Assembly (NCBI GenBank): GCA_965223415.1
Contig: OZ245002.1
Location: 3,840,001 to 3,904,000 of the forward strand
Direction: 5' to 3'
Length of the DNA stretch: 64,000 nucleotides
Origin: Myxococcota bacterium
GTDB taxonomy: Bacteria > Myxococcota_A > UBA9160 > UBA6930
The notes beneath the pieces were generated by a model. The model saw only the letters and a list, made by a program, of their open reading frames with translations, made no database searches and was not told where the DNA came from. Position numbers and translations under genes: made by a program. Shown one piece after another: positions 698 to 44,011 of this stretch. Positions within the stretch are counted from its first letter, which is position 1, and the number at the start of each line of letters is the position of its first letter.

Positions 698-922
698 TCA
701 CGACTCGTAGAGCTTGACGACCTCGACGCTGCCCTTGGGCGCGGCCTCGATGCAGAGATCGCAGAGCACGCACTCGTCCAGGTTCTCCTCGACGATCCGG
801 AGGCTCCCGTCGTCGTTCTGGGCGAAGATGTCGACGGCGCACACCTCGACGAGCTTCTTGGCCGTCTCGGCGTCCTTCGCGGCTTCGTCGGCGACCTTGA
901 CGTCGATGAAGAGTCCGGGCAT
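698..922 (-). CDS. Small 4Fe-4S ferredoxin
   Basis: 74 aa with VEVCAVDIF and ECVLCDLCIEAAP (CxxCxxC plus a distal Cys); start overlaps the stop of the upstream ligase subunit. Confidence 0.85.
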   Translation of the reverse strand: MPGLFIDVKVADEAAKDAETAKKLVEVCAVDIFAQNDDGSLRIVEENLDECVLCDLCIEAAPKGSVEVVKLYES

Positions 923-1830
923 CAGCTGGCTCCCATGCGCTTGCGCAGGAGATCCGGGATCTCCTCGATGCGCTCTGCCACCGAGATGCCGGCGGCTTCC
1001 ATGCGCTCGATCTTCTCGGCCGTGGTGTCTTCCTTGCCCTCGACGATGGTTCCGGCGTGGCCGAAGCGCATGCCCTTCATCTCGTCCATGAAGCGGCCGG
1101 CCATGAAGGCGACGATCGGGAGGCGCGAGTCGTTCTGCTTGACCCACTCGGCGAGCTCGGCCTCCATGCGGCCGCCGGGCTCTGAGTAGATGGCGATGGC
1201 CTCCGTCTCCGGATCCGCCTCGAAGTAGGCCATCAGCTCGGCGTAGGTGGTGCCGACGATCGCGTCGCCGCCGATCGAGACGCAGGTGCTCTGGCCGAGG
1301 CCGGCGGCGGTCAGCGTCGAGGCGATCTCGGTGGTCATTCCGCCCGAGCGCGACATCACGCCGATCGGTCCCTTCCTGTAGGCCTGCTTGGTGTTGGCGG
1401 CGGGGCCGCCGACGCCGCCCATCTTGGCCTCGTCCGGCGAGATGATGCCCAGGCAGTTCGGTCCGATGATGCGCGCGCCGCGCAGGTTCGCGAGCTCGAC
1501 CATCTGCGCCACCTGGCGGCGTGGGATGTTCTCGGTCACCACCACGATCAGCTGGATGCCGTTCTCGATGGCCTCGAACACGGCGTCCCGGGTGAAACGC
1601 GGCGGTACGGAGACGATCGAGCCGCCCGGGGGGCCACCCTGGGCGTCGCAGATCTCCTTCACGCAGTTGTAGACGGGCACGCCGTAGACGTCGCGCCCGG
1701 CGCGTCCGGGCGTCACCCCGCCGACGATCTTCGCGCCGTAAGCCAGGTTCTCGCGGGTCAGGTTCACGGCCTCGCGGCCGGTGATGCCCTGGATGATGAA
1801 GGTCGTGTCCCTGGAGATGAAGATCGACAT
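922..1830 (-). CDS. ADP-forming acyl-CoA ligase small/alpha subunit (SucD / citryl-CoA synthetase-like)
   Basis: IIQGITGRE, VGGVTPG, IIGPNCLGII, SRSGGMT, VSIGGD and the phospho-His motif FGHAG. Confidence 0.88.
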   Translation of the reverse strand: MSIFISRDTTFIIQGITGREAVNLTRENLAYGAKIVGGVTPGRAGRDVYGVPVYNCVKEICDAQGGPPGGSIVSVPPRFTRDAVFEAIENGIQLIVVVTENIPRRQVAQMVELANLRGARIIGPNCLGIISPDEAKMGGVGGPAANTKQAYRKGPIGVMSRSGGMTTEIASTLTAAGLGQSTCVSIGGDAIVGTTYAELMAYFEADPETEAIAIYSEPGGRMEAELAEWVKQNDSRLPIVAFMAGRFMDEMKGMRFGHAGTIVEGKEDTTAEKIERMEAAGISVAERIEEIPDLLRKRMGAS

Positions 1831-1838
1831 CGGGCCCT

Positions 1839-3035
1839 CTACAGCTTCGCCACGGCGCGGCCCGCCGCTTCGTACATGGAGACGGAGCGGTCGCAGTACT
1901 CGACCCCGTACTTCTCGAGGATCTTGAAGCCCTCCTCCTCCCACGCTCCCGGAATGCGGAAGATCGAGATCACCTCCGCCGGGTCCTTGCCGCTCTCGAG
2001 GCAGCCCTTGATCACGCCCCGGGCCACGATGTCGACGCGGGTGTTGGAGACGACGTTCATCATCACCGCGATCTTCTCGACGCCGGGCTTGCCCAGGATC
2101 AGCTTGGTCAGGTTGCACGCCTTGCCGACGCTCGGGTTGCCACCGATCTCGCAGTAGTTGGCGGGCTTGCCCCCGTGCTTGCGCACCGCGTCGAAGAGGG
2201 TGAGGGAGCCGCCGCCGGCGCCAATGATGAGGCCCAGGTTGCCGTCGAACTCCACCACGTTTCCAGCCACGCCGCGGTGGTCCACCGCGTTGAGCCGTGC
2301 GCCCTCCAGCTCGAAGGGGGTGGGCGGCCGGGCCTGGCGGGTCTCGTCCTCGCCGATGCCGAGCTCCTCGAGCAGCGCCTGGTGGTCGCCCCGCGCCTCG
2401 GCCTCCATGTCCACGTGGCCGTCGAGGACGATGAACGAGCCGTTCTCGAGCTTCGCCAGCGGGTTGATCTCGGCCAGGGTGAGGTCGTACTCGAGGAACA
2501 GCTGGATCAGCTTGTAGACGATCGGCACCAGCCGGTTGAGATCGCTCCCCGAGACGCCCACCGCCGAGATCGCCTCCTTGGCGATGCGCTCGGACAGCGG
2601 GAGGATCGTCGAGAAGTGGGTGCGGGAGAGGTGCTCCGGATGGGTCTCCGCCACCTCTTCGATGTCGATGCCGCCCATGTCGCTGAAGAGCAGCACGGGC
2701 AGCTTGCGGCGGCCGTCCCAGGTGACCGACACGAAGTACTCGTGGGCGACCGGGCTCTTGGCTTCGACCAGCACCGAGCGCGCGGTCTCGCCGTTCACCA
2801 CGATCGGCAGCACGTGCTCGTACTTCGCGGCCGCCTCCTCCGGCGTGTCGGCGAACTGGACGGCACCCGCCTTCATGCGCCCGCCCGAGAGCACCTGGCT
2901 CTTGACCACGACCGGGCCCGCGATCGCCTCGGCGGCGGCGCGGGCCTCGTCGGGGGAGCCGACCACGCGGCCTTCGCCGAGGGGCATGCCGTGGCGGCGG
3001 AAGAGCGCCTTGGACTCGTACTCGTAGAAGCGCAT
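1839..3035 (-). CDS. ADP-forming acyl-CoA ligase large/beta subunit, ATP-grasp (SucC / citryl-CoA synthetase-like)
   Basis: MRFYEYESK, VVKSQVLSGGRMKAG, GGIDIEEV, LAEINPL; C-terminal GAGGGSL and ANYCEIGGNPS. Confidence 0.88.
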   Translation of the reverse strand: MRFYEYESKALFRRHGMPLGEGRVVGSPDEARAAAEAIAGPVVVKSQVLSGGRMKAGAVQFADTPEEAAAKYEHVLPIVVNGETARSVLVEAKSPVAHEYFVSVTWDGRRKLPVLLFSDMGGIDIEEVAETHPEHLSRTHFSTILPLSERIAKEAISAVGVSGSDLNRLVPIVYKLIQLFLEYDLTLAEINPLAKLENGSFIVLDGHVDMEAEARGDHQALLEELGIGEDETRQARPPTPFELEGARLNAVDHRGVAGNVVEFDGNLGLIIGAGGGSLTLFDAVRKHGGKPANYCEIGGNPSVGKACNLTKLILGKPGVEKIAVMMNVVSNTRVDIVARGVIKGCLESGKDPAEVISIFRIPGAWEEEGFKILEKYGVEYCDRSVSMYEAAGRAVAKL

Positions 3036-3174
3036 GCAGGTCTCCAGCCGCGAGGGCCCCGGGGGAACGGCGGGGCAGCGTACCACCGGGTCCCCGCCCT
3101 TCAAGGGCCCCCGGGCGGGCTCCCGAGCCGGTGTTAACCTCCCCCTCCTTCGCGAAACGAGGAGCCGAGCGCCG

Positions 3175-4341
3175 ATGCCGACCGTCCCCGCCTACTCGAT
3201 CACCACCGAGGCCATCGCCAAGGAGCAGGAGCGCGTCGGCTCCGATCCCTCCCAGTTCGACGTCTCCAACGTCCTGCAGCTCGATGAGCTCGAGCTCTCG
3301 CCCGTCGGGCCGAACGACGTGCGGATGAAGGTCCTGGCGGTCTCGGCCGAGCACAACATCGACCACGCGACGACTGCCGACACGATCAACATCGCCGACG
3401 CCCGGGGCGGCAAGATCTACCCGGGCAACAGTGCTACGGGCGAGGTGCTCGAGGTCGGCGCCAACGTGACGAAGTTCGTCCCCGGCGACATCGTCATCAC
3501 CCACTGCAACGGAGGGGCGGACGAGTACGGCTTTCCCCTGCGGATCTATGGCTACGACGCCGAGGACTCGATCGGCTGGTACGCCAAGGAGGCGGTGGTC
3601 ACCGACTGGCAGCTGATCAAGGCGCCGCTCGACTGCGGGCTCAACCTGTGGGAGATCGCCGCGCTGCCCCTGCGCGCGCCCACCGCCTACCACCTGTGGC
3701 GCCGCGCGATCGGCATCTACCGGGTGAAGGTCCCCTACGAGCGGCGCGCCCGGATCAACGTGCTGGGCTTCGGCGGCGGCGTCTCCGAGCTCTTCCTGAT
3801 GCTCGCCAAGGCCGAGGGCCACAACGCCTTCTTCTGCTCCGGAAGCCCCGAGCGCCGCGCCGCCCTCGAGAAGCTGGGCATCGTGGGCATCGACCAGAAG
3901 GCCTTCAACCGCTTCGCCAGCCGCGACGACGTGCGCGCCTTCACCAAGGAGTGCCGCCGGCTCACCGACGGCGAGCTGATGCACGCGGTTTGCGACATGC
4001 TGCGGGGCCCGGTCTTCGCCGCCGGCCTCGCGTGCACGGCGCGGCAAGCCGTGAACGTCAGCGCCGGATGGCAGCTCTCCCAGCAGGTCGAGTACAACTC
4101 GACGCTGATGTCGGTGAAGCAGGTGACCATCGACCACACCCACTACGAGACGCCCGAGGGCTGCGAGGCGGCGACCGAGCTCTACGGCAGCGTCTTCAAG
4201 CCGACCCTCCACGACGAGATCTACCGCTGGGACGACCTCCCGCGGGCCCACCAGGAGATGCACCTCAACACCCAGACGGGCATCCCGATCGTCCGCATCG
4301 CCGACGACATGCCGGAGGCGGTGAAGGGCCTCGTTCCCTGA
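3175..4341 (+). CDS. MDR-family reductase resembling crotonyl-CoA carboxylase/reductase (divergent)
   Basis: GEVLEVGANVTKFVPGDIVITHC, RIYGYD, QLIKAP, TAYHLW, THY and KPTL...RAHQEMHLN line up by eye with Ccr motifs. Confidence 0.7.
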   Translation: MPTVPAYSITTEAIAKEQERVGSDPSQFDVSNVLQLDELELSPVGPNDVRMKVLAVSAEHNIDHATTADTINIADARGGKIYPGNSATGEVLEVGANVTKFVPGDIVITHCNGGADEYGFPLRIYGYDAEDSIGWYAKEAVVTDWQLIKAPLDCGLNLWEIAALPLRAPTAYHLWRRAIGIYRVKVPYERRARINVLGFGGGVSELFLMLAKAEGHNAFFCSGSPERRAALEKLGIVGIDQKAFNRFASRDDVRAFTKECRRLTDGELMHAVCDMLRGPVFAAGLACTARQAVNVSAGWQLSQQVEYNSTLMSVKQVTIDHTHYETPEGCEAATELYGSVFKPTLHDEIYRWDDLPRAHQEMHLNTQTGIPIVRIADDMPEAVKGLVP

Positions 4342-5222
4342 GCCGATGGATCGCCTTCGCGGTCCTCGTGCTGCTGGTGCCGCTGCTCTACCGCATCGGG
4401 CGGTACGCGCCGCTGTTCGAGGAGCGCGCGGCGCTCGCGATCGATCGGAGCGCGGAGGGCCGCTCCCGCCAGGCTGCGGCGCCCCGGCGCGTGCTGCTCG
4501 TCTCGATCGACGGGCTGGGCCCGAGCCTGCTGGCGGAGGTGCCCACCCCCTTTCTCGATCGCCTCGCAGCCGATGGCCTGCAGGCGGAGGCAGTGACCAC
4601 CGTAGTGCCACCGGTCACCCTCACCTCCCACGCGAGCATGCTCTCCGGCCTCCCGCCGGAGGAGCACGGCGTCTTCTTCAACCGGGTCGAGCCCTGGCGC
4701 GAGCTGCGTTTCGCCACGATCTACACCGATTGCGCCCGGGCCCGCCTGCGCTGCGGCCTCTTCGCCGGCAAGCGCAAGTTCGTCCACTTCGCCGAGCACG
4801 AGCCCGGCGTCGAGCGCTACCAGTACGGCGCCAACGCCGCCGAGGTGCTGTGCCACGCCCTCCGCTACGCGCACCAGCGCGATCCGGACTTCCTGTTCGT
4901 GCACCTCGCGGAGGTGGATCTTACAGGTCACACCGAGGGCTGGGGAAGCGGCCTTCAGGCGCGGGCGCTGCAGGAAATCGATACCCGGCTCGCCGCCTTC
5001 GTCGCGGTCCTGGCGGAGCTCCCGCGGCCCCTCGTCGTGTTGGTCACCAGCGAACACGGCGGCAGTGGGACGAGCCATCACGAGGATACGCCCGCGAACC
5101 GCGAGATCCCCTGGATCCTGTGGGGCGATGGCGTCACCACCGACATCTCGCCGGCTGCCAGCACGCTCGACACCTACACGGCACTTCAGGGATTTCTGCT
5201 GCGATCGGCTCCTGGCAGCTGA
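4338..5222 (+). CDS. Alkaline phosphatase superfamily / nucleotide pyrophosphatase-phosphodiesterase (start uncertain)
   Basis: N-terminal TM segment; LLVSIDGL, PPVTLTSHASMLSG, VHLAEVDLTGH, VTSEHGG. Confidence 0.8.
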   Translation: MSRWIAFAVLVLLVPLLYRIGRYAPLFEERAALAIDRSAEGRSRQAAAPRRVLLVSIDGLGPSLLAEVPTPFLDRLAADGLQAEAVTTVVPPVTLTSHASMLSGLPPEEHGVFFNRVEPWRELRFATIYTDCARARLRCGLFAGKRKFVHFAEHEPGVERYQYGANAAEVLCHALRYAHQRDPDFLFVHLAEVDLTGHTEGWGSGLQARALQEIDTRLAAFVAVLAELPRPLVVLVTSEHGGSGTSHHEDTPANREIPWILWGDGVTTDISPAASTLDTYTALQGFLLRSAPGS

Positions 5223-5223
5223 C

Positions 5224-6285
5224 TCAACGCGGCGCCACCTCCGTAAAGACGGCCAGCTGCAGCACGTATTCGCCGATGTGCAGGCGGCCGTCGTCGCCGA
5301 TGCCGCCCAGGGCCTTCTTGGCGTTCTGGCGCTCGTACTCGGAGCGCCCGATCGCATTGACGTTGTTGAAGACGTCGAGGGCGGCGGTCACGAGGCGCAG
5401 GTCGTCGCGGCCCGGGATCTCCTGCACGGCCTTCGTTGTGAGGGTGGCGGAGAGGAACTCCGGCGGCACCGGCGCAGCGGTGGTGGCGTGTTCCTCTTCC
5501 CGGACCTGCTCGGTCAGGTACACCGGCGCGATGTGCCGGGCCACGTCGAGACCGAGCAGCGCCGCGCACTGGAACTGGGCCGCGTAGTTGTAGACGCCGT
5601 AGAGCAGGGTCAGGAGCCCCCAGACGATGTAGCTCGAATCCCGGGTGTAGTGGGTCTTGGCCAGGTTCCCGAGCCCGCGGGTGATCCAGAAGATCTCGTC
5701 GGGGCGGAGCACCGAGATGCGCCCGGTCGGGAGCACTTCCCCTTCGCGGAAGTCCTCGGCGACCAGGGCGCCGGGCGTTCGCTTCACCCGGGCGCCGGCC
5801 GGCGGCAGCGCCGCGGCCGCCCCGTCGAAGGCCACCTCGATCTTCTCCCGGTCGTCGAGCGGCGTGCCGTCGTCCGGGAAGGCGTAGCTCCGGCGGCCGT
5901 TCACGATGCACTCGCGGGTCCAGGTGAGGGTGTCGCCGATGGTGCTGCGCACCTGGCAGACGCCAGTGGTGGCGCCATGCTCGCGGAACTTGCGGCCGAG
6001 GACCCGGGTCTCGGCCTCGACGTCGAGGGAGGTCGGCGCCTTGCGGAACAGCACGTTCTTGGCGCCCAGGTTGGCGGGAGAGTTCTCCGACACCGCCGTC
6101 GTCTTGCAGAACGCCGCCAGCTTGAAATAGATGGGGTCGAGGGTGCCCTCGGGCCGCCAGAAGAGCCGCCCGAAGCGCGCCTCGAAAGCCTCGGGGGAGA
6201 CCTCGAGCCCGCGACCCACGGCGCCGCCCGGCACGTCCAGCCCCGGCTTCAGATCCTCGATGAAGAGCCCGGTTTCCTCGGCCAC
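5224..6285 (-). CDS. MaoC-like double hot-dog protein, mesaconyl-CoA hydratase-like
   Basis: 353 aa with two FxEDL/EDF..G starts (GLFIEDLKPG, AEDFREGE) and an ANLG motif, as in Mch-type hydratases. Confidence 0.5.
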   Translation of the reverse strand: MAEETGLFIEDLKPGLDVPGGAVGRGLEVSPEAFEARFGRLFWRPEGTLDPIYFKLAAFCKTTAVSENSPANLGAKNVLFRKAPTSLDVEAETRVLGRKFREHGATTGVCQVRSTIGDTLTWTRECIVNGRRSYAFPDDGTPLDDREKIEVAFDGAAAALPPAGARVKRTPGALVAEDFREGEVLPTGRISVLRPDEIFWITRGLGNLAKTHYTRDSSYIVWGLLTLLYGVYNYAAQFQCAALLGLDVARHIAPVYLTEQVREEEHATTAAPVPPEFLSATLTTKAVQEIPGRDDLRLVTAALDVFNNVNAIGRSEYERQNAKKALGGIGDDGRLHIGEYVLQLAVFTEVAPR

Positions 6286-6467
6286 TGCCGCTCCTCCAGG
6301 AAAGGGGCGGATCCTACTCGTGCCCCCCCGCGGGCGCCACGAGGTCGGCCGGTGACGGACTCCGGGAAGCGTGCTGAGAGCCGGCCGGTGACGGGTCCCC
6401 GGAGGTCATCTATGCTGCCGCCCCGCCCGCGACGGGCCCCTCTCCCCAACCCCTCCCGGAGCCTCCC

Positions 6468-7604
6468 GTGATCGTCGCCGTACCCAAGGACCGTCCCGAG
6501 GAGCGTCGTGTCGCCCTCACGCCGGACGGCGCCAAGACCCTCGCTCGCCAGGAGATCGAGGTGCGCGTGCAGAGCGGCGCCGGAAGCGAGGCGGGCTTCT
6601 CCGACGCCCAGTACGAGAAGGCCGGCGCCAAGGTCGCCGGCGATGCCGTGGCCCTGTTCGGCGAGGCGGACGTGGTGCTGCGGGTGAACGCGCCCACCGG
6701 CGAGGAGCGCAGCCGGCTGCGGAGCGGCAGCGTCTGGATCTCCCTCCTGCGCCCCCTGGACGAGCCCGGGGAGGTGAAGGCCCTGGCGGAGACCGGCGTG
6801 ACGGCCTTCTCCCTCGAGATGGTGCCGCGCATCACCCGCGCCCAGTCGATGGACGTGCTCAGCTCCCAGGCCACCGTCGCCGGATACCGCGCCGTGCTGC
6901 TCGCCGCCGAGCGCCTGCCCAAGATGTTCCCGATGCTGGTGACCGCCGCGGGCACGAGCTCGCCGGCCCGGGTGTTCGTGATCGGCGCCGGCGTGGCCGG
7001 CCTGCAGGCGATCGCCACCGCCAAGCGCCTCGGCGCCGTGGTGGAGGCCTACGACACCCGCGCCGCCGCCGCCGAGCAGGTGGAGAGCGTCGGCGCCAAG
7101 TTCGTCGTGCTCGATCTCGACGCCGGCGATGCCGAGGATGCCGGCGGCTACGCCCGCGAGCAGACCGAGGAGTTCTACGCCGCCCAGCGCAAGCTGATGG
7201 CGGAGAAGGCGGCGGCCAGCGACATCGTGATCACCACCGCCCTCGTGCCCGGTCGTCCGGCGCCGCAGCTCCTCGACGAGGGTGGCGTGGCCGGCATGGC
7301 CGCCGGCTCCGTCATCGTGGATCTGGCCGCGCCGAACGGCGGCAACTGCGCGGGAACCCGTGCCGGTGAAGACGTCGTCGTGGGCGGCGTGCACGTGCTC
7401 GGTCCCCTGAACCTGGCCGGCGAGCTGCCCTTCGACGCGAGCCAGATGTTCAGCAAGAACATCGTGACCTTCCTCCAGAACCTGATCGGTGAGGAGGGGG
7501 CGCTCGCGATCGACCCGGAGGACGAGATCGTGGCGGGCTCCCTCGTCGCGAAGGACGGCGCCGTCGTACACCCGGTCGTACTCGACAAGCTTGGAGGAAG
7601 CTGA
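6468..7604 (+). CDS. pntA: NAD(P) transhydrogenase alpha subunit, part 1
   Basis: ERRVALTP, PRITRAQSMDVLSSQ, IGAGVAGLQAI, ITTALVPG, IVDLAAPNGGNC. Confidence 0.95.
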   Translation: MIVAVPKDRPEERRVALTPDGAKTLARQEIEVRVQSGAGSEAGFSDAQYEKAGAKVAGDAVALFGEADVVLRVNAPTGEERSRLRSGSVWISLLRPLDEPGEVKALAETGVTAFSLEMVPRITRAQSMDVLSSQATVAGYRAVLLAAERLPKMFPMLVTAAGTSSPARVFVIGAGVAGLQAIATAKRLGAVVEAYDTRAAAAEQVESVGAKFVVLDLDAGDAEDAGGYAREQTEEFYAAQRKLMAEKAAASDIVITTALVPGRPAPQLLDEGGVAGMAAGSVIVDLAAPNGGNCAGTRAGEDVVVGGVHVLGPLNLAGELPFDASQMFSKNIVTFLQNLIGEEGALAIDPEDEIVAGSLVAKDGAVVHPVVLDKLGGS

Positions 7605-7907
7605 ATGCTCTCCGATCCGGCCGTCGCCCTCACGGTGCTGGTCCTGTCCCTGTTCGTCGGCATCGAGGTCATCTCGAAGGTGCCGCCGCTGCTCCACACG
7701 CCCCTCATGTCCGGCTCGAATGCGATCTCCGGCATCACCATCGTGGGCGCGCTCATCGCGGTGACCTCCGACAACCCGGTCGTCTCGACCTGGTTCGGCT
7801 TCGCCGCGGTGGTGTTCGCCACGATCAACGTGGTGGGGGGCTTCCTGGTGACGAACCGCATGCTCGCCATGTTCAAGCCCAAGCAGATCGAAGGCGGAGA
7901 CAAGTGA
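7605..7907 (+). CDS. pntA: NAD(P) transhydrogenase alpha subunit, part 2
   Basis: KVPPLLHTPLMSGSNAISG, INVVGGFLVTNRMLAMF. Confidence 0.95.
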   Translation: MLSDPAVALTVLVLSLFVGIEVISKVPPLLHTPLMSGSNAISGITIVGALIAVTSDNPVVSTWFGFAAVVFATINVVGGFLVTNRMLAMFKPKQIEGGDK

Positions 7908-9292
7908 GCGTCACCGCCCTGCAGATCGCCTACCTGGCGGCGGCGGTCCTGTTCATCGTCGGCCTGAAGATGCTCTCGTCGGCGAAGACCGCCGCCCGGG
8001 GCAACGCCATCGCCGCGTTCGGCATGGGCGTGGCCATCGTCACCACCCTCGTCGGCCAGGGCGTCCTGGGCTGGGAGTTCATCGTCGGCGGCGTCCTGCT
8101 CGGCTCGGTGATCGGCGCCTTCGCCGCCCTGCGCGTGCAGATGACCGCCATGCCGGAGATGGTGGCGCTCCTGAACGGCTCCGGCGGCGCCGCCTCGGCC
8201 CTGGTCGCCGGCGCCGAGCTGCTCTCCTACGCGAACCGCAGCCAGGTGCCGGACGGTGTCGTGTCCACCGCGATCGTGCTCTCCACCCTGATCGGTGCCG
8301 TCACGGTGACCGGCAGCGTGATCGCCTTCCTGAAGCTGGCCGAGAAGATGCCGGGCCAGCCCATCACCTATCCCGGCCAGCAGTTCGTGAACGCGATCAT
8401 CGGCCTCGGGGTGGTGGCCCTGTGCGTGATGGTGGCGACGAGCCCCCTCGAGCTCGGCCCGTACTGGATCCTGGCCGGCGTGGCGCTGGTGCTCGGCATC
8501 CTGCTCGTCATCCCGATCGGCGGCGCCGACATGCCCGTCGTCATCTCGCTCTTGAACTCCTATTCGGGGCTTGCGGCCTGCGCCACGGGCTTCGTGCTGA
8601 ACAACTCGGGGCTGGTGATCAGCGGCTCCCTGGTGGGCGCGTCGGGCCTGATCCTCACCAAGATCATGTGCGACGCCATGAACCGGTCCCTCGCCAACGT
8701 GCTCTTCGGCGCCTTCGGCGCGGCGCCGGAAGGCGGTGCCGCGGCCGCGGGCGAGCAGGGCACGGTGAAGGGCTACACGGCGGACGACGCCGCGGTGATC
8801 TTCAGCAACGCCCGCTCCTGCATCGTCGTCCCCGGCTACGGCATGGCGGTGGCCCAGGCCCAGCATGCGGTGCGCGAGCTGGCGGATCTCCTCGAGGAGA
8901 AGGGCATCGAGTGCCGCTTCGCGATCCATCCGGTCGCGGGCCGCATGCCCGGGCACATGAACGTGCTGCTGGCCGAGGCGGACGTCAGCTACGAAAAGCT
9001 GATCGAGATGGACGAGATCAATCCGGAGTTCCCCCAGACCGACGTGGCCCTGGTGCTCGGCGCCAACGACGTCGTGAACCCGTCGGCCCGGGCCGACACC
9101 GGGAGCCCGATCTACGGCATGCCGATCCTGGACGTGGATCGCGCCCAGCACGTGTTCGTCATCAAGCGTTCCATGAACCCGGGCTTCGCCGGCGTCCAGA
9201 ACCCGCTCTTCTTCAACGAGAACACGATGATGATCTTCGGCGACGCCAAGGGCACCGTGCTCGCCCTGGTCGACGCCGTCCGCGAGTACTGA
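7904..9292 (+). CDS. pntB: NAD(P) transhydrogenase beta subunit
   Basis: MPEMVALLN, GGADMPVVISLLNSYSG, HPVAGRMPGHMNVLLAEA, GANDVVNP. Confidence 0.96.
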   Translation: MSVTALQIAYLAAAVLFIVGLKMLSSAKTAARGNAIAAFGMGVAIVTTLVGQGVLGWEFIVGGVLLGSVIGAFAALRVQMTAMPEMVALLNGSGGAASALVAGAELLSYANRSQVPDGVVSTAIVLSTLIGAVTVTGSVIAFLKLAEKMPGQPITYPGQQFVNAIIGLGVVALCVMVATSPLELGPYWILAGVALVLGILLVIPIGGADMPVVISLLNSYSGLAACATGFVLNNSGLVISGSLVGASGLILTKIMCDAMNRSLANVLFGAFGAAPEGGAAAAGEQGTVKGYTADDAAVIFSNARSCIVVPGYGMAVAQAQHAVRELADLLEEKGIECRFAIHPVAGRMPGHMNVLLAEADVSYEKLIEMDEINPEFPQTDVALVLGANDVVNPSARADTGSPIYGMPILDVDRAQHVFVIKRSMNPGFAGVQNPLFFNENTMMIFGDAKGTVLALVDAVREY

Positions 9293-9295: not shown

Positions 9296-9997
9296 ATGCC
9301 GGGCGAGGCGCATCCGTTCGGGTTCCTCGTCCATCCGGGGGGCGGCCCCCATCCCGGCGTCGTGCTGATTCCCGACGTCTGGGGCCTCTCGGACCTGTAC
9401 GAGCGACTGGCCACGCGGCTCTCGGAGGAGGGCTTCGCCGTGCTCGTGGTCGATCCCTACCGCAAGACCGGTCGCGGCGAGTTCTCGGACCCGGCCGGCG
9501 CCATGGCCTTCATCCGGGAGCTCTCGGACCCGCTCGTGATCGAGACCGTCCAGGAGGCGGTCGACGACCTGGCGGGCCAGCCGGCGGTGGCGGGTCGCAA
9601 GGTGGGCGTGATCGGCTTCTGCATGGGAGGCATGTACGCGCTGCACGCCGCCTGCAGCTGCAGCGGGGTCTCCGCCGCCGCTCCCTTCTACGGGATGGTC
9701 CGCAACGAGCCCGGCCTCGACCCCGAGAAGAAGCCCCGTTCGCCCATCGACGCCCTGGGCGAGCTCCGCTGTCCGGTGCTCGGTCTGTACGGCGAGGAGG
9801 ATGCGATCATCCCCGTCCGGGACGTCCGCGACCTGGAGGCCGCCCTGGCCGCGGGTCCCCACGACGGTGCGGTCCACCTCTACGCCGGTGCCGGCCACGC
9901 CTTCCTGAACGACACGCGGGAGGACGCCTACCGGCCGGAGCAGGCGGCCGACGCCTGGGCGAAGCTCGTGCCGTTCCTTCGAGAGAAGCTCGGCTAG
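9296..9997 (+). CDS. Dienelactone hydrolase family protein
   Basis: GVIGFCMGG nucleophile motif, YGEEDAII, AGHAF. Confidence 0.9.
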   Translation: MPGEAHPFGFLVHPGGGPHPGVVLIPDVWGLSDLYERLATRLSEEGFAVLVVDPYRKTGRGEFSDPAGAMAFIRELSDPLVIETVQEAVDDLAGQPAVAGRKVGVIGFCMGGMYALHAACSCSGVSAAAPFYGMVRNEPGLDPEKKPRSPIDALGELRCPVLGLYGEEDAIIPVRDVRDLEAALAAGPHDGAVHLYAGAGHAFLNDTREDAYRPEQAADAWAKLVPFLREKLG

Positions 9998-10183
9998 AGG
10001 CCCGGCTCCCCCCTGATCCCTGCCCCGTCGATCCGGATTGGATTGCGGGACTCCATTCCTGGCGATTCCCTCGAGGCGCCCCCGCGACGCGGGGCCGGCC
10101 GTCCCGGGGATCCCCGTGGCACCGGGGATGGGGGCGGCCGCAGGGCCGGCGGTTGCCCCCATTCGTCCGCCCCGGTGTCGGCC

Positions 10184-10918
10184 CTAGGGCGCGGAGGCGC
10201 TCCGGGCCCGGGCCACGCACAACGCCAGGGTTCGCGTGCGCGTCGCGAAGCGCGTGATCCGCGTGTCGACCCGGACCTCCCGGCCCTCGCCGTCGCGCAG
10301 GCGCCCGGAGAAGTGGCGGGCTCCGTCGCCCTCGGCGATCGCGTCGAGCTCGGTCCACCATCCGGCCCGGTCCGGCTCGGGGACGAAGCCCATCGCGTCG
10401 GCGCCGACGAGCGCATCGCGGGTGGTGGCGAGGAGCGCACCGGCGGCCGGGTTCGCATCGGCGATGCGGCCGGATTCCGGGTCGATGGCGAGGAAGGCAT
10501 CGCCGATGCGATCGATGGCCGCCGAGACGGCCCGGCGACGGGACGGCCGAGGAGCGCCCGAGGCCCGGACCGCCGGCGCGGTCGCCCGCACCGCCTCGCG
10601 GAACCGCGCGACCAGGGGCTCCAGCCGCGCGCTCACCCGCGGAGCCTCCGGCCCCGCGACGGCGCACGCGCCCGCCAGCCACGCGTCCAGGATCGGCCCC
10701 ATGCGCCGCGCGCGAAGGCGCAGCCCCTCGAGGGAGGGCGCGGCGTCGTCGCCCTGGGCCAACGCCATCACGGCGAAGGAGCGCAGCCGGCGCAGGGCCT
10801 CCGCCTCGGTGCTCCCGGCCGCCGGCAGGCCCCGGTCGCGGAGCTCCGCTGCCATCGCCCCTTCGATGGCGCGCCGCTGGCCCAGGAGCCAGGACGCGAG
10901 CTGACGATCGCCCCCCAC
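10184..10918 (-). CDS. PAS domain-containing protein (start uncertain)
   Basis: C-terminal AIDRIGDAFLAID...IADANPAAGALL...RLRDGEGREVRV PAS pattern. Confidence 0.65.
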   Translation of the reverse strand: MGGDRQLASWLLGQRRAIEGAMAAELRDRGLPAAGSTEAEALRRLRSFAVMALAQGDDAAPSLEGLRLRARRMGPILDAWLAGACAVAGPEAPRVSARLEPLVARFREAVRATAPAVRASGAPRPSRRRAVSAAIDRIGDAFLAIDPESGRIADANPAAGALLATTRDALVGADAMGFVPEPDRAGWWTELDAIAEGDGARHFSGRLRDGEGREVRVDTRITRFATRTRTLALCVARARSASAP

Positions 10919-10972
10919 CGCTGGAGCGTAGCCGTGCTCAACCGGCGCCGCGCCCGTGCCGATACGCATTCC

Positions 10973-11641
10973 ATGGCCGCACCGACCTCCCGCGAGGATC
11001 TCCCGCCGCCGCGCCACCTCATCCTGGTGTTCGCGCGGGAGGAGGCCTTCGTGCCCATGACCCGCACGATCCTCTCCCGGCTCGGCTACGCGCTCCTCGA
11101 TCCGGAGATGTGGACGGAGTCGAGCTACTGGGCCGAGCGCGAGCCCCAGCTCCTCGTGGTGGACGAGCCCCGCATGGACGAGGTGCGGGCCCTCCGCGCC
11201 CATCGCGGGACGCCCATCCTCCTTCTCTCCGGCCGTCGCGGGGCGCCTCCGGAAGCGCCTCGGCTGCTCGGCGCCGTCCACAAGCCCGCAGGTCTCCACG
11301 AGCTCTACCGCCTGCTCCAGCAGGCCCTCGAGGAGACGCCGCGAACGGCGCCGCGGGTGGCGATCGACCTGCCAGCCCAGGTGCGCCGCGACGGCCAGGA
11401 GTGGGCCGGCGAGGTTCTCTCGCTCTCGGAGAGCGGCTGTCTGCTGCGCACCAGCCAGCCCCTGCCTCTGGGCAGTGCCATCGAGCTCTCCTTCGAGCTG
11501 CCGGGCGGCGACCGCATCGACACCCGGGCCGCCTCGACCTATCAGCTCCTGCCAGACACGGGCCTCGTCTTCGAGGCCACGCCCCCTGCCGGGCGCCGGG
11601 CCATCGCCCAGTTCGTCGAGCGCAGGCTCATCGCCGCCTGA
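10973..11641 (+). CDS. PilZ domain protein with a receiver-like N-terminus
   Basis: PRTAPRV...LSLSESGC (RxxxR and DxSxxG-like motifs); N-terminal LLVVD...PILLLSG...VHKP. Confidence 0.75.
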   Translation: MAAPTSREDLPPPRHLILVFAREEAFVPMTRTILSRLGYALLDPEMWTESSYWAEREPQLLVVDEPRMDEVRALRAHRGTPILLLSGRRGAPPEAPRLLGAVHKPAGLHELYRLLQQALEETPRTAPRVAIDLPAQVRRDGQEWAGEVLSLSESGCLLRTSQPLPLGSAIELSFELPGGDRIDTRAASTYQLLPDTGLVFEATPPAGRRAIAQFVERRLIAA

Positions 11642-11648
11642 GGCCCGG

Positions 11649-12437
11649 CTACCTCCCGGGTCCGCTCCCCACTCCCTTGAAGAGCGGCATGTTCGATTCG
11701 GTCGCCACGTAGACCACGTTCGGGTTCTCGTTCAGCGTCTGGATCCACAGATAGTGAAGGTAGGAGTTGCTGAGCGTCGAGTTGATGATCTTCTGGGCCT
11801 CGGCCGCGCCTTTGGCCCGGGCGACCTCGATCTCGGCCTCCTTCTTCGCCTGCTCCAGCTCGAACTGCTTCTGCTGCACCCGCTGCTCGGCGGTCAGCTT
11901 GGCCTCGATGCTCTCCCGGAAGCGTTGGGGCAGCTGGATGTCGCGGAGCAGCACGTCGACCACGGTCACGCCGCGGGGCTCGAGGCTCTCCTTGAGACGC
12001 GCCTGGATGCGCGTCGCGATCTGCTGGCGCCCCTCTTCCGAGTAGATGTTGCGCACCGGGTACGCGGAGACCACGTCGCGCAGGGCGCTCCGGAAGTAGG
12101 GCACGACCAGCTTGTCGATGTAGTCCCAGCCGACCGTCTTGCGGATCTGGGGCGCCGTGTCGGGCCGCACCTGGAAGAGCAGGGAGGTCTCGAGCTTGAC
12201 GATCATCCCCTCGGACGAGGGAACGGTGGTCGCCTCCTTGCGCTCCTGGAGCTTGACGTTCCAGGTCTCGATCTGGCGCGCGACCGGGATCACGAAGGTG
12301 ACGCCCTGGGAGACCGGATCGTCGGCGATCGCGCCGAAGCTCTTCTGGACTCCGACCTCGCCGTCCTCGATGACGACGCAGGCCGGGAGCACGAGCAGCA
12401 AGAGAAGCAGGGCTGTGGTCTGGACGGTGCGATGCAT
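11649..12437 (-). CDS. SPFH/prohibitin family lipoprotein
   Basis: LPAC lipobox; DVLLRDIQLP, IEAKLTAEQ, AKGAAEAQ. Confidence 0.9.
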   Translation of the reverse strand: MHRTVQTTALLLLLLVLPACVVIEDGEVGVQKSFGAIADDPVSQGVTFVIPVARQIETWNVKLQERKEATTVPSSEGMIVKLETSLLFQVRPDTAPQIRKTVGWDYIDKLVVPYFRSALRDVVSAYPVRNIYSEEGRQQIATRIQARLKESLEPRGVTVVDVLLRDIQLPQRFRESIEAKLTAEQRVQQKQFELEQAKKEAEIEVARAKGAAEAQKIINSTLSNSYLHYLWIQTLNENPNVVYVATESNMPLFKGVGSGPGR

Positions 12438-12508
12438 GGCGGTTCTCCTCAGGTGGGTGGACGGAGCCGCCCGAGGATACACTCGGCCGACCACGGCGAG
12501 GAGCCCCG

Positions 12509-13699
12509 ATGAGCGACGCATGGCGCGAGTTCGATCTCTTCCATCCGACCCCGGAGCATCGGCTCCTGGCGGATACCCTGCGTGAGTTCGTGGCTCGCGA
12601 GGTCGAGCCCCAGGCCGCCGAGCACGACCGCCGCGAGGCCTTCAACCTGGCGCTCTTCCGCCAGGCGGGCGAGCTGGGGCTGCTGGGCATCACCCTGCCC
12701 GAGGAGCTGGGCGGAGCCGGCATGGACGCGACGGCGGCGGTGCAGGTGATGGAGGCGCTCTGCACCTCCGATCCCGGCTTCGGGCTGGCCGTGCTCGCCC
12801 ACGCGATCCTGTTCGCCCAGAACGTCAACGTGAACGGCAACGAGCTGCAGCGCAAGCACGTGCTGCCGAAGGCCGCCAGCGGCGAGTGGGTGGGCGGCCT
12901 GTGCATGACCGAGCCGCAGGTCGGCACCGACGTGCTCTCGCTGCGCACGAAGGCCGTCCGGGACGGCGACGAGTACGTGCTGGACGGGGTGAAGACCTTC
13001 ATCACCAACGGCGGCATCGACGACCAGACCCTCGGCGACTGCTTCGTCGTCTACGCGGCCACCGCACCCGGCGAGATCTCGAGCTTCCTGGTCGAGAAGG
13101 GCGACCCGGGCTTCCGGCTCGGCCAGAAGTGGATCGACAAGCTCGGCATGCGGGCGTCGTTCACGGCGGAGCTGGTCTTCCAGCAGGTGCGGATTCCCCT
13201 CGCGCGCCGCATGGGAGAGGAGGGCCAGGGCACGCTCCAGATGATGCGCAACCTGGAGGTCGAGCGGCTCGCCCTTGCCGCCATGGCCCTGGGCATCGCC
13301 CAGCGCTCCCTGCAGGTGATGGTCGGCTACGCGAACGATCGCAGGGCCTTCGGCGTGCCGATCCGGGAGCACGGGCAGATCCAGCGCTACCTGGCGGAGC
13401 ACTTCGCCGCCTGGCGCTCGGCCCGCGCCTTCGTCTACGACACTGCCCGCCAGATCGACCTGGCGTCCACGGGCCAGCGCGTGCTGGCGGACGCGGCGAA
13501 GCTCGTCGCGAGCCAGATGGCCAAGGCCGCCGCCGACGCCGCCATCCAGGTGCTCGGCGGCTACGGCTACATGGGCGAGTACACCGTCGAGCGGCTGTGG
13601 CGGGACGCGAAGCTCCTCGAGATCGGCGGCGGCACGCTGGAGGCGCACCACAAGAACCTCGCGAAGGACCTGTGCCGGAACCCGGCGCTGCTGGACTGA
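12509..13699 (+). CDS. Acyl-CoA dehydrogenase (isovaleryl-CoA dehydrogenase-like)
   Basis: CMTEPQVGTD, KTFITNG, KLGMRAS, QVLGGYGY, RDAKLLEIGGGT. Confidence 0.92.
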   Translation: MSDAWREFDLFHPTPEHRLLADTLREFVAREVEPQAAEHDRREAFNLALFRQAGELGLLGITLPEELGGAGMDATAAVQVMEALCTSDPGFGLAVLAHAILFAQNVNVNGNELQRKHVLPKAASGEWVGGLCMTEPQVGTDVLSLRTKAVRDGDEYVLDGVKTFITNGGIDDQTLGDCFVVYAATAPGEISSFLVEKGDPGFRLGQKWIDKLGMRASFTAELVFQQVRIPLARRMGEEGQGTLQMMRNLEVERLALAAMALGIAQRSLQVMVGYANDRRAFGVPIREHGQIQRYLAEHFAAWRSARAFVYDTARQIDLASTGQRVLADAAKLVASQMAKAAADAAIQVLGGYGYMGEYTVERLWRDAKLLEIGGGTLEAHHKNLAKDLCRNPALLD

Positions 13700-14618: not shown

Positions 14619-15888
14619 CAGGCTGCTGAAAAACCCTGCGTTTCCGTGTTCTCGATGGTAGAAGATGGGTCGGGGGGAGAGAGGATGCGCGGCAGCGACC
14701 GAGAGCAGGGTTCGATGTTCAGCTACGTCTCGCTGGAGACGCGGATTCCGGAGGATCATCCGCTTCGCCCCATGCGGGCGATGGTGGACGAGGCGCTGAG
14801 GGGCCTGTCTCGGCGGTTCTCGGAGCTCTACGCGTCGACGGGCCGGCCGTCGATCCCACCGGAGCGGCTGCTGCGGGCTCTGTTGCTGCAGGTGCTCTAC
14901 TCGATCCGGAGTGAGCGCCAGCTGATGGAGCAGCTCGAGTACAACCTGCTGTTCCGTTGGTTCGTAGGGCTGGGGATGGAGGATGCGGTCTGGGTCCCGA
15001 CGGTCTTCACGAAGAACCGGGACCGGCTGCTGGAAGGGGACGTGGCGGAGGCGTTCTTTGAGGCGGTGCTGGCGCAGGGAAAGGACCACGGCCTTCTGTC
15101 GTCGGAGCACTTCACGGTGGATGGCACGCTGATCGAGGCGTGGGCGAGCCAGAAGAGCTTCCGGGCGAAGGACGGCTCGGGGGACGACGGAGACGACGAT
15201 CCGGGCAACCCGACGGTGAACTTTCGGGGAGAGCGGCGGAGCAACGCGACGCACGAATCGACGACGGATCCCGAGGCGCGGCTGGCGCGCAAGAAGGGCC
15301 AGACCTCGCAGCTGGCCTACATGGGCCATCTGCTGACGGAGAACCGCAACGGCCTGATCGTCTCGGCGCTGCTGACGGAGGCCGATGGCTACGCCGAGCG
15401 GCTGGCAGCGCTGGAGATGGCGGAGGACGTGGCGGGAAGGCGCCGGATCACGCTGGGCGGGGACAAGGGCTACGACACCGAGGAGTTCGTGGCGGGCTGC
15501 CGGAAGCGCAACATCACGCCGCACGTGGCGCAGCACACGACGAATCGGGCCAGCCGGATCGACGGTCGCACGGTCCGTCACGAGGGCTACGCGATCAGCC
15601 AGCACAAACGCAAGCGGATCGAGGAGTGCTTCGGTTGGATGAAGACGGTCGGGGGAATGCGAAAGACGCGTCACCGGGGCACGGATCGGGTCGGGTGGAT
15701 GTTCGTCTTCACGGCGGCGGTCTACAACCTGGTCCGCATACGCAACCTCGTAGAGGTCACATGACGCACCTGCATCGAGACGAGGTACCCCGGATCGCTT
15801 CCGGGATCGAAGAGCGAGCCGAGCGGGCCGCGGGGACCCGCGCCCTCTGGCGTTCTGGCGCCTCTCAGCGCCGAATTTCAGCAGCCTG
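14619..15888 (+). mobile_element. IS5-family insertion sequence, copy 1 (1270 bp)
   Basis: 13-bp terminal IRs caggctgctgaaa/tttcagcagcctg; CTAG duplication at 14615-14618 and 15889-15892. Confidence 0.95.
14685..15764 (+). CDS. IS5-family DDE transposase
   Basis: GRPSIPPERLLRA, FTVDGT, GGDKGYD, RKRIEECFGW; RBS-like ggagagagg before the ATG at 14685. Confidence 0.95.
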   Translation: MRGSDREQGSMFSYVSLETRIPEDHPLRPMRAMVDEALRGLSRRFSELYASTGRPSIPPERLLRALLLQVLYSIRSERQLMEQLEYNLLFRWFVGLGMEDAVWVPTVFTKNRDRLLEGDVAEAFFEAVLAQGKDHGLLSSEHFTVDGTLIEAWASQKSFRAKDGSGDDGDDDPGNPTVNFRGERRSNATHESTTDPEARLARKKGQTSQLAYMGHLLTENRNGLIVSALLTEADGYAERLAALEMAEDVAGRRRITLGGDKGYDTEEFVAGCRKRNITPHVAQHTTNRASRIDGRTVRHEGYAISQHKRKRIEECFGWMKTVGGMRKTRHRGTDRVGWMFVFTAAVYNLVRIRNLVEVT

Positions 15889-34274: not shown

Positions 34275-34350
34275 CGGGGTGTAGCTCAGTGGCCAGAGCC
34301 GGATCTTTGGGGGATCCGCGTCGCGGGTTCGAATCCCGCCACCCCGACCA
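34275..34350 (+). tRNA. tRNA-Pro (anticodon TGG)
   Basis: Acceptor stem CGGGGTG/CACCCCG, anticodon arm ggatc-ttTGGgg-gatcc, T-loop GTTCGAATC, encoded CCA. Confidence 0.95.
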
Positions 34351-36232
34351 AACGCCCTCGCGAGGGAGGCCTGTCAGCTCGGCAGCTTGGGCCGAGATGA
34401 TCTCGGGCGTTCGGTTGCGCTGATTGGCCCAGCAGGCCCAGCAAGAGAACGCCGGGGATGGGTGGCTACAGCATCTTCGGTTCTCTCCTGGTCTGAATGG
34501 AGAGAGCAAGAGACGTGCCAGCGGCTTCGAGGGCCTGGGGAGAGCCGTCGTGGCACTTCGCGCGACTTCAACCACGACTTTGGCGGACGCTCGACGGCCA
34601 AGCTCAGCCAAGCCAACTCAACCGCTCCAGTTCTCGAGTGCGCCGCCTCTCACTATGCGCGCCTTGAAGTTGGGGTTCAGGAAAATCTCTCCGAGGCTGC
34701 CCTTGCCTACTCGCCTTCCTCGGACGCGGGAACGAGGCGATCCTCCTCGGAGAGTTCCAGCCGGATGAACTGGCGCATCGAGTCCGGAATATCATTATCG
34801 GCAACGAGCATCTGTAGTCGGTCCCCATGCTCGCGGCACGTGTCCCCAAGGAGCCGATAGATCGCCTCTCGGCGGGCGGGATCTCTGCCCTCTTCGCCGA
34901 AATGCTCGCTCAACCCGTCAATGAAGAGGATGTTGGGCAGCGCCAGGTCGTATGCGAACGCATTCAGCTGATGCGCGACCGTGTGCGCAACGTTCACTAG
35001 CGTTCCTAGTCCTGGAGAACTCAGCTCGTCGAATCGGCGACCGTGGAAGATCGGGAGGAAAGTCCTTCGGTCTATCTTGCACTCTTCCTCCTCTCCGAAT
35101 TCGGGAGGGTGCAGTCGTGACACGAGTTCGTCGAAGACCGCTTCGAGGCCATCGATCCGTTCTTGGACGCTTCCCGACGCGTCGCCTAGTGACTCAAGCT
35201 TCGCCTGAAGCTCTTCTTTGCGACGCTCCAGATTCAGAGAATGCTCGCGATCTCGGTCCAGCTTCCCAAGAACAGCAAGGTAGTCGCTGTACTGAGAGAC
35301 TCGTGCTCGGGCAGATGCGCGGTTTTCAGCAGCCTCTGTCATCGCAGCGGCACGAGCTGATACGAACGATTCCGTTCGGAAGTCAAGCTCCCGTGCGTTC
35401 TCTCTTGCCTGCTCTTCGAGGATGACGAGCTCATTTCTTAGTTCATTGGCTCGTTGCTCACGAACCTCGAGGAGTTCGTTGGCTTCGACTAGCTGTGCAT
35501 CAACGCGCCGGCTCTCCTTTACCAAGCTCTCTCGTGAATAGTCTACGCGAGGAGGCTGCAAGCAGAGGTAGCAGTCGTCTTCACTGCTGCGGGATTGCTC
35601 CACCTCGGATCCACACCGGGGGCAGACCACGAAGTCGATATCGAGAAGGTGCTTGTTGGCTACGATCGACCGCGTAAGTTGTCTCGCGTTGGTCTCCAAC
35701 TGCGCGGCGAGCCGACTCAGCTCTTCGACGCTTCGATTCTCGGCTTCTAGTCCTTCCCTGGCTTCAGCGACCTTCGAGCTCAGTTCTAGCTGCCTGCGCC
35801 GAAGCTCCCTGATGAGGGGTTCGTCCTCAGCGCCTCGGGCAAGTTCTTTGGTCTGATCCTCCGCTGCCTGCAGTTCGCGCTTCGCTTCGGCGAGGTTTCG
35901 CTCGATCTCGGCCCGGTTCTCCATGGGCGTGTCGTCGAAGAACTTCTCGAAGAGGCTGTCGCGCGACTTGAGGTCCCTGGCCTGAGCAAGCACGTGTCGG
36001 AGTTCTTCCTGAACCTCAGCGGCTTCGACGCTGTGGATTCCGTAGAGGATCTCGAATACGTACTTGCGTTTGATGTTCTTCGCGAAGTCGCGGTGTCCGA
36101 AGACTGTGTCGCCGATCTCGTCCTGGCGCAGTGTGCAGTAGAGGAGGTAGTCGCGAATCGTGACTGGCGTCGGCTCACTCTCCGGCTGTGTTGGCCGCGA
36201 CGGCACGTCAAGGCGCGGAAGCGATAGCTGTT

Positions 36233-37360: not shown

Positions 37361-37447
37361 ACGTCCCCCCAACGTGATGCCGGTAAGATGCCCCCTGCAC
37401 GTTGGGAGTTCGCACTATTTTGCGTACTTTTTTCCGAAACAGGACAC
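36236..37447 (-). mobile_element. IS630-family insertion sequence (1212 bp)
   Basis: IRs gtgtcctgttccaga / gtgtcctgtttcgga; TA duplication at 36234-36235 and 37448-37449 within a CTAG target. Confidence 0.93.
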
Positions 37448-37791
37448 TAGGAGCCAGTGCACATAGCTGGTGGAGCGTGCGTCGGCTCGATACGCGGGCA
37501 GGCGATAGGTGCCCGACTCCCCGGCGACTTCAACAGGAGCGTTGATTGTCGTAACCGCGGGCCGCGCGACAGTGAACGCGCTGTCGCCGAGCATCAGCTC
37601 GCCGACGACGGTGTCGACAGCGTCCCGGGCCTCTCTAGGCATGTCCTCGAACGAACCGCCAAGCAAGGACCGGCACAAGCGCATTAGTGTCGTCTTGCCG
37701 CTCGCGATGGGCCCGGTAATGATGTTGAGCCCCGGCTCGAATGCGACCGAGCGGTCGGTGCCGCGCAGCTGAAGCGAGTTCAAGCGAACTC

Positions 37792-41469: not shown

Positions 41470-41500
41470 TGGCCCTGCCCCGATCTCGTAGACACTCTGG

Positions 41501-43904: not shown

Positions 43905-44011
43905 CGTCGAGTGATTTCCCCCTGGTGTTCCGGACGGTACCGAAGGAAAGGGGGACCCTGCTGCCGCGCTCAGAAGCGCCGCCCGCCGAGGCCTGGCATC
44001 CTCGCTGCCCC

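Follow-up and report, generated by a model that had tools for sequence, protein, structure and literature searches.

How does a bacterium assimilate acetyl-CoA if its genome yields neither a glyoxylate shunt nor a canonical crotonyl-CoA carboxylase/reductase (Ccr)? The question is raised by a stretch of 64,000 nt from a Myxococcota bacterium (GenBank assembly GCA_965223415.1, contig OZ245002.1, positions 3,840,001 to 3,904,000 of the forward strand); this whole stretch is called the window below. Positions 698-9292 of the window hold a cluster of genes, all intact open reading frames (ORFs), for an acyl-CoA ligase with a ferredoxin-like protein, a Ccr-like reductase, a putative hydratase and a transhydrogenase. 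The host genome is a single contig of 5.83 Mb, 97% complete, and close homologues carry the source labels Myxococcota or Deltaproteobacteria. The cluster is most likely a variant of the known ethylmalonyl-CoA (EMC) pathway with three candidate new enzyme families; the locus is probably the core of this pathway, serving acetyl-CoA assimilation without the glyoxylate shunt by means of divergent enzymes.

Ethylmalonyl-CoA pathway genes and three gaps

Much of the EMC pathway is encoded outside the cluster. About 4.4 kb ahead of the window we found genes for a mutase of 658 amino acids (aa), for MeaB and for a protein like cobalamin adenosyltransferase. Records named 'protein meaA' share 65% identity with the mutase, and most other mutases listed share at most 45%; MeaA is the ethylmalonyl-CoA mutase (Ecm). 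Elsewhere in the genome there are Mcd (match to 8ciw, E 1e-128), Mcl of the Chloroflexus type (4l7z, E 7e-149, with Asp at position 318) and a separate Mcm above cut-off. A canonical mdh-sucCD-kor cluster stands apart from the locus. Several expected enzymes were not found: malate synthase (no PF01274 match in this one contig, 97% complete), isocitrate lyase (the single partial match to its family in the genome scores best as PrpB), canonical Ccr (none in the genome above cut-off) and the Mcl2 thioesterase (Mcl is the only CitE-family protein of the genome). The pathway skeleton thus has holes at Ccr, at Mch and at the conversion of malyl-CoA to malate. The three odd enzymes of the cluster fit them. 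The cluster genes concerned are the following.

698-922, minus strand: ferredoxin-like protein, 74 aa, with C28, C51, C54 and C57
922-1830, minus strand: ligase alpha subunit (SucD-like), 302 aa, phospho-histidine H258; PF02629, PF00549
1839-3035, minus strand: ligase beta subunit (ATP-grasp), 398 aa; PF08442; proposed malate-CoA ligase
3175-4341, plus strand: divergent crotonyl-CoA carboxylase/reductase candidate, 388 aa
5224-6285, minus strand: divergent mesaconyl-C1-CoA hydratase candidate, 353 aa, double hot-dog fold

In the proposed scheme, the reductase would convert crotonyl-CoA, CO2 and NADPH (plausibly via PntAB) to ethylmalonyl-CoA, which Ecm and Mcd would bring to mesaconyl-C1-CoA. 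The 353-aa hydratase would make beta-methylmalyl-CoA from it; Mcl would split the latter into propionyl-CoA and glyoxylate and would join glyoxylate with acetyl-CoA to give malyl-CoA. The alpha/beta ligase with its ferredoxin may then convert malyl-CoA, ADP and Pi to malate, CoA and ATP via phospho-His258, the same job as that of the Rhodobacter Mcl2 thioesterase with the thioester energy kept. A preliminary description of this DNA, made from the sequence alone, had suggested an atypical CO2-incorporating route. Incorporation of CO2 is indeed probable; the pathway is not an undescribed one, since Ecm, Mcd and Mcl give the EMC pathway. The same description had advised looking for ecm, mcd, mcl and ccl elsewhere in the genome: the first was located ahead of the window and the next two at other places, while no short Ccl (citryl-CoA lyase) turned up.

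The layout of the locus agrees with what had been described earlier, a ligase pair with a coupled ferredoxin, divergent from a Ccr-like gene. The ferredoxin start overlaps the stop of the ligase alpha gene (TGATG at 922), so the coupling of ligase and ferredoxin is real, and a gap of 139 bp separates the ligase unit from the reductase unit. In 20 reductase-centred loci from relatives, where some contigs end early, we counted ligase beta in 15, ferredoxin in 14, Mch of either type in 15 and pntA in 12. The co-arrangement of the cluster genes is not due to chance. Neither way in which the suggested grouping might have failed, scattered genes in relatives or membership in ordinary protein groups of unrelated function, was borne out.

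Candidate carboxylase/reductase and hydratase

On the Ccr model TIGR01751 the reductase scored 78.4 bits (curated cut-off 378.55 bits), and it is 20-24% identical to solved Ccr enzymes. A structure model built from 84 homologues (pLDDT 89) gave enoyl-CoA carboxylases/reductases (ECRs) in all of the 14 first-listed Foldseek rows and in all of the top 10 VIA rows. Pocket positions were taken from HMMER alignments to 6na3 and 4gi2 and not from superposed structures; on this mapping N61, Y127, D128 and H323 correspond to N81, F170, E171 and H365 of the K. setae enzyme (6na3), and each of the four is invariant in 84 of 84 homologues. In the part of PMC6628652 available to us, ECRs are called the fastest enzymes of CO2 fixation; variant F170Y gave 100% carboxylated product (Table 1), E171A still gave 97% with a 17-fold lower kcat, and T82D and S119A were more than 50-fold slower. 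E171D is not among the variants in that part of the paper.

Distribution of the reductase was followed in 41 related genomes of the same order, which are kin, so that counts among them are not independent. This reductase occurs in 30 of them (two copies partial, one frameshifted), canonical Ccr in six, both in none and neither in five. Ecm was found in 28 of the 30 carriers. Nine loci (L120, L124, L126, L128, L129, L188, L190, L191 and L192) have canonical Ccr in the slot of the reductase, again divergent from the ligase. Outside the order, five Actinomycetota carriers were tested, and each has Ecm but no canonical Ccr; in 23 Actinomycetota reductase loci mce adjoins in 15 and thiolase in 16, and the ligase is not there. 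The reductase is rare in the class of genome G178, as none was found in 120 further genomes sampled from this class. Sequence, fold and gene content together indicate that the protein very probably carboxylates crotonyl-CoA to ethylmalonyl-CoA with NADPH.

The 353-aa protein had no match in Pfam, NCBIfam or PDB by sequence search; it was placed by profile and fold comparison only. In the 20 loci of relatives its slot holds a protein positive for PF19315 (the Mch/MeaC family) in 11 and a hydratase of the window type in four. Alignment of the two slot families by hhalign gave a probability of 96.7 (E 3.7e-10, 289 columns). The structure model (pLDDT 86.6) had 4e3e and 8hgn (MeaC) as top Foldseek matches, with E 1.1e-15, followed by Rv0216 at 1e-11. 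The two types hardly coincide: the window-type hydratase occurs in 11 of the 41 genomes, 10 of these without a PF19315 match and one with a partial match, and a PF19315 match is present in 27 of the 30 genomes without it. The candidate activity that follows, mesaconyl-C1-CoA hydratase making beta-methylmalyl-CoA, can be assigned with considerable confidence.

Candidate malate-CoA ligase and its ferredoxin

Both ligase subunits fall below the curated models of their nearest named relatives. The beta subunit scored 237 bits on SucC (cut-off 370) and 153 bits on MtkA (NF010647, cut-off 604); the alpha subunit scored 294 bits on SucD (cut-off 336) and is 39% identical to the canonical SucD of the same genome. 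An ATP-grasp beta subunit and a phospho-His alpha subunit, features of acyl-CoA ligases of the succinyl-CoA synthetase/citryl-CoA synthetase (CCS) superfamily, are both present, and H258 of the alpha subunit is invariant in 46 of 46 homologues. The beta subunit has the PPT, DHRG and GGGS blocks in common with citryl-CoA synthetase 6hxq_B (E 1e-46); its best overall PDB match is Thermus SucC (E 4e-52). It has a loop MNVVSNTR and a block FRIPG where CCS has GGTANNTR and VRRNG, and it lacks the second Arg; these loop residues and this Arg presumably bind citrate in CCS and in ATP-citrate lyase (ACL). The NIFGG-type loop of SucC is absent too. In a quick tree of 79 rows (7 aberrant rows, rows outside 360-430 aa and rows without a start Met were left out) the beta subunit falls into a clade by itself (22 rows, SH-aLRT 99); SucC and MtkA group elsewhere (34 rows, 98), and so do the rows whose motifs are of ACL/CCS type (10 rows, 100), where the ACL/CCS labels come from motifs only. 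Sequence thus sets the ligase apart as a clade of its own, distinct from SucCD/Mtk and from citryl-CoA synthetase.

Tree and loop motifs speak against a citryl-CoA synthetase. The family leads of the preliminary description (CCS-like, Ccr-like, Mch-like) all hold. Its remark that each enzyme departs from the canonical sequence is borne out for ligase, reductase and hydratase, which lie outside curated models; PntAB is ordinary. In literature searches, with most subscription papers out of reach, we found no description of this ligase family or of the reductase family.

Distant members of the ligase family are labelled Dehalococcoidia and Humimicrobiia. Several bear a citryl-CoA synthetase label; some are named 'citryl-CoA synthetase large subunit' or K15232 by their sources. 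A plasmid collection held no close ligase relative (best match 33.7%). Near the family there are more unnamed beta-subunit clades with other loops (P0168, P0172, P0180, P0196, P0210, P0211 and P0216; P0173, P0178 and P0250), and several further uncharacterised acid-CoA ligases probably exist there.

The ferredoxin follows the ligase closely. Among the best 80 of 502 confirmed metagenome matches to the ligase, it stands after the alpha gene in all 48 loci with at least 400 nt beyond that gene. Its four Cys (C28, C51, C54 and C57), enough for one [4Fe-4S] cluster, are invariant in 46 of 46 aligned homologues. There was no Pfam match; the nearest named Atlas clusters carry PF05187 with a score of 0.89, which serves as a lead only. 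Judged only by linkage and translational coupling, the ferredoxin would most likely serve the ligase as an accessory third chain. Its role would be structural or regulatory, because the malyl-CoA/malate reaction needs no redox step. We found nothing to support the idea that it split off from the tail of the CCS small subunit, which is longer, 6hxq_A not being among the 60 of 88 PDB matches listed.

We found the ligase in 35 of the 41 related genomes; a sample of 151 genomes of the phylum had it in 28. Its metagenome loci contain mcl in 40 of 80 cases and in 26 of the 37 loci of at least 9 kb; 33 of these 37 hold mcl, mch, mcd or a ccr. Looser clustering of the 80 loci gave mcl in 41, mch in 22 and mcd in 12. 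One metagenome group, L158-L181, has the ligase cassette together with phosphoenolpyruvate carboxykinase, mch and mcl; an ABC transporter and a regulator are often inserted between mcl and ligase, and a PhaC-like/acyl-CoA synthetase fusion (PRK07868) lies downstream of the cassette.

Malyl-CoA and malate are interconverted in three known ways, by a thioesterase, a CoA-transferase or a ligase. Six of the 41 related genomes are without the ligase. Three of these, G007, G017 and G024, encode an orthologue of the CitE family (285 aa) to which no match in any other genome exceeds 41% identity. In G007 this Mcl2-like gene adjoins Ccr in the ligase slot and encodes Glu at the position of Asp318 of the lyase, which in the part of PMC3832036 available to us is the mark of the malyl-CoA thioesterase group. 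In G031, another genome without the ligase, a family III CoA-transferase gene is located between reductase and mcl. In G033, likewise without it, malate synthase is present, and Ccr, Mch and Ecm were not found. The three genomes with the CitE-type replacement belong to one genus. Our main argument for malyl-CoA as the substrate is this replacement of the ligase by a thioesterase or a CoA-transferase. We consider it probable that the ligase converts malyl-CoA to malate with formation of ATP.

A number of observations weigh against the scheme as a whole. The enzyme activities, the direction of the malyl-CoA step and the role of the ferredoxin are what we infer from genes, folds, conserved residues, gene content and slot replacement. 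Here mcl and the ligase are 1.28 Mb apart, and on the MtkA model the canonical SucC reaches 544 bits (cut-off 604), so that it might itself serve the malyl-CoA step. The CoA-transferase of G031 is below every specific family cut-off, and G025, also without the ligase, is 68% complete. Replacement is not strict, because some carriers have a Mcl2-like gene or malate synthase as well: three genomes of another family, which have Ecm, possess a single operon with the ligase, mcl and a CitE gene of the Glu type (as in L182:7319-11627, with mcl, the Glu-type Mcl2-like gene, ligase beta, alpha and ferredoxin), and G012, G015 and G022 (three of the 35 carriers) have ligase and malate synthase together. 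There is a fourth hole too, as the best score in the genome on the methylmalonyl/ethylmalonyl-CoA epimerase model TIGR03081 is 43.7 bits (cut-off 114.95). A candidate for the missing epimerase is a two-domain glyoxalase (L001:16264-17142) encoded shortly ahead of the window, between ecm and nadA, and recurrent in the order, which scores 63.8 bits as a protein. For the reductase, the VIA margin is small (ECRs at Z 35.3-38.1, alcohol dehydrogenase next at 35.1), Asp128 replaces Glu171 of the CO2 pocket in 84 of 84 homologues, second-shell Thr82 and Ser119 are Ile/Val and Asn, and in a quick tree of 27 rows the family is a long separate branch whose sister link to canonical Ccr is unsupported (SH-aLRT 35).

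The Asp in the pocket, the changed second shell and the tree without a supported sister group would also suit an enoyl-CoA reductase that simply turns crotonyl-CoA into butyryl-CoA, with ethylmalonyl-CoA made from butyryl-CoA by a biotin carboxylase; the genome has eight carboxyltransferase matches and IcmF. We regard this as highly unlikely, given that the equivalents of Asn81, aromatic 170 and His365 are invariant in 84 of 84 homologues and that the family is exactly exclusive with canonical Ccr, with which it shares a slot. That the ligase is a true citryl-CoA synthetase of the reductive tricarboxylic acid (TCA) cycle is hardly credible in spite of the blocks shared with 6hxq_B, the source labels including K15232 and a 2-oxoacid:ferredoxin oxidoreductase-like pair seen by inspection beside sucCD. 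The loop is different, the second Arg of the VRRNG block is missing and the clade is separate; the three citrate-synthase-family matches in the genome all span the full model, none being a short Ccl, and the ligase neighbours are mcl, mch, mcd and ccr. In the part of a 2026 survey of known autotrophs available to us (PMC13147460), CCS/CCL are placed in Aquificaceae and Leptospirillum.

Two other explanations accept a new ligase and give it a different task. It could activate a C5 dicarboxylate (methylsuccinate, mesaconate, citramalate or methylmalate) for the lower half of the EMC pathway and leave malyl-CoA to SucCD or an unrecognised thioesterase. The frequency of mch (22/80) and mcd (12/80) as ligase neighbours, the Mcl of Chloroflexus type, called tri-functional in the available part of PMC3832036, and the three genomes keeping a Mcl2-like gene beside the ligase would suit this role. 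It is still unlikely, since loss of the ligase coincides with gain of a Mcl2-type thioesterase (three genomes) or of a CoA-transferase before mcl (one), and presence in 35 of 41 genomes suits a core step better than a substrate-specific entry. Alternatively, a malate-CoA ligase could run forward, from malate to malyl-CoA, in the manner of the serine cycle, and Mcl would then cleave malyl-CoA into acetyl-CoA plus glyoxylate. MtkAB is known to be used with Mcl in this way, phosphoenolpyruvate carboxykinase adjoins the cassette in nine of the 80 loci, and co-occurrence with Mcl2 or malate synthase would be explained. The available part of 10.1101/2020.09.14.296780 also has mtkAB and mcl with pckA in Binatota, where mtkAB is as annotated there and may not be this ligase family. 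However, the best match to serine-glyoxylate aminotransferase in the genome is only 24% identical, a thioesterase can stand in for the reverse direction only, and an EMC pathway without malate synthase or Mcl2 needs the reverse step; forward operation thus appears quite unlikely.

Beyond the formation of malate from malyl-CoA, a bolder proposal can be offered tentatively, as a possibility that we rate below even chance. The ligase would be a three-subunit iron-sulfur malate-CoA ligase with an origin separate from MtkAB and close to the branch of citryl-CoA synthetase, and through it the last EMC step would yield ATP; the reductase would represent an unrecognised enoyl-CoA carboxylase family with Asp for Glu in the CO2 pocket; and the two would define a variant of the EMC pathway that saves energy, is spread among uncultured soil and marine bacteria, those labelled Myxococcota and others, and escapes surveys based on marker genes.

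Neighbouring genes, significance and relation to known systems

The remaining genes of the cluster are listed below.

4338-5222, plus strand: alkaline-phosphatase-superfamily gene; PF01663
6468-7604, plus strand: pntA1; 7605-7907, plus strand: pntA2; 7904-9292, plus strand: pntB (AlaDh_PNT_N/C, PNTB_4TM, PNTB)

The pntAB genes, the only copy in the genome, encode an ordinary split transhydrogenase, a plausible source of NADPH. The preliminary description had counted them as part of the system. This does not stand: pntB is present in 39 of 41 relatives, including the pathway-less G033, and proximity to the reductase is confined to this order (pntA within the stretch in 12 of 20 order loci, in 0 of 23 Actinomycetota loci and in 6 of 80 ligase loci). 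The genes named in that description were all confirmed within its span; the phosphatase gene had been passed over. It is probably a passenger, found in only four of 20 loci of relatives and with several paralogues in the genome, so we rejected it as a part of the pathway.

Genes for dienelactone hydrolase and for PAS, PilZ, SPFH-like and acyl-CoA dehydrogenase proteins (window 9296-13699) accompany the cluster in the order, the dienelactone hydrolase in 13 of 20 loci; this is probably general synteny. The stretch between ecm and the glyoxalase gene (L001:13716-16100) encodes three small exported proteins whose C-termini bear VPEP-like motifs and by inspection are PEP-CTERM-like. An IS5-family transposase is present in two copies sharing the N-terminus (14715-15764 and 38702-39751). 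An island of lower GC (about 34300-44000; 0.62-0.67 vs 0.71) begins after a tRNA-Pro gene (about 34275-34350) and holds IS630, IS5 and IS3 transposases and an ORF for a Rad50-like coiled-coil ATPase (34707-36206). The genome encodes no fewer than 77 proteins like acyl-CoA dehydrogenases and has 39 matches to family III CoA-transferases, which suggests a degrader of lipids or aromatics that needs acetyl-CoA assimilation.

Ccr is the usual marker of the EMC pathway, and 30 of the 41 genomes of the order would be scored by it as lacking the pathway. The K15232 label on the ligase invites false calls of reductive-TCA autotrophy. At about 20% identity and with a changed pocket, the reductase family lends itself to testing the four-residue rule and provides a new scaffold; this part is testable in Salinilacustrithrix flava (L046), a named isolate whose complete chromosome carries the gene. 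An ATP-forming malyl-CoA step, if true, would let acetate be assimilated with a higher yield and would have its use in synthetic cycles. It is also striking that a CoA ligase without redox chemistry has an obligate iron-sulfur partner. In the available parts of earlier reports, a KEGG-recognised ccr appears in another Myxococcota lineage (PMC10576062), and EMC, mtkAB and mcl appear in Binatota (PMC8262859 and preprint 10.1101/2020.09.14.296780).

Compared with CcsAB of Hydrogenobacter thermophilus (6HXQ), the ligase has the PPT, DHRG, GGGS and GGNP blocks of the beta subunit; it differs in the substrate loop, the absence of the second Arg, the length of the alpha subunit (302 vs 353 aa), its EMC neighbours and a genome in which no short citryl-CoA lyase was found. 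With MtkAB (NF010647) it shares the alpha/beta phospho-His architecture, linkage to mcl and the proposed substrate pair. However, MtkA nests among SucC and the beta subunit described here does not; identity to Paracoccus MtkA is 29%, a ferredoxin is added and the proposed direction is the reverse.

The hydratase resembles Mch/MeaC (PF19315; 4E3E, 8HGN) in the double hot-dog fold (TM 0.64-0.70), the slot, the near-exclusive distribution and an Asn-x4-His motif that aligns with that of the PF19315-positive family; unlike these enzymes it has no Pfam match, is 16-19% identical to the solved structures and belongs to a family of 31 proteins found. Similarly, the reductase has the Ccr fold (TIGR01751; 6OWE, 4GI2; TM 0.78-0.82 by query, Z 35-38), Asn81, the aromatic residue 170 and His365, the slot and the company of Ecm, while it is shorter (388 vs about 445 aa), 20-24% identical, with Asp for Glu171, a changed second shell and a long branch.

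Taken as a pathway, the system is like the EMC pathway of Rhodobacter sphaeroides, Paracoccus and Methylorubrum in having Ecm, Mcd, Mcl and Mcm and Ccr-like and Mch-like enzymes, with neither isocitrate lyase nor malate synthase found. It is unlike it in that Ccr and Mch are below or outside the curated models, Mcl is of the Chloroflexus type, Mcl2 is absent and the last step is apparently taken by the ligase with its ferredoxin.

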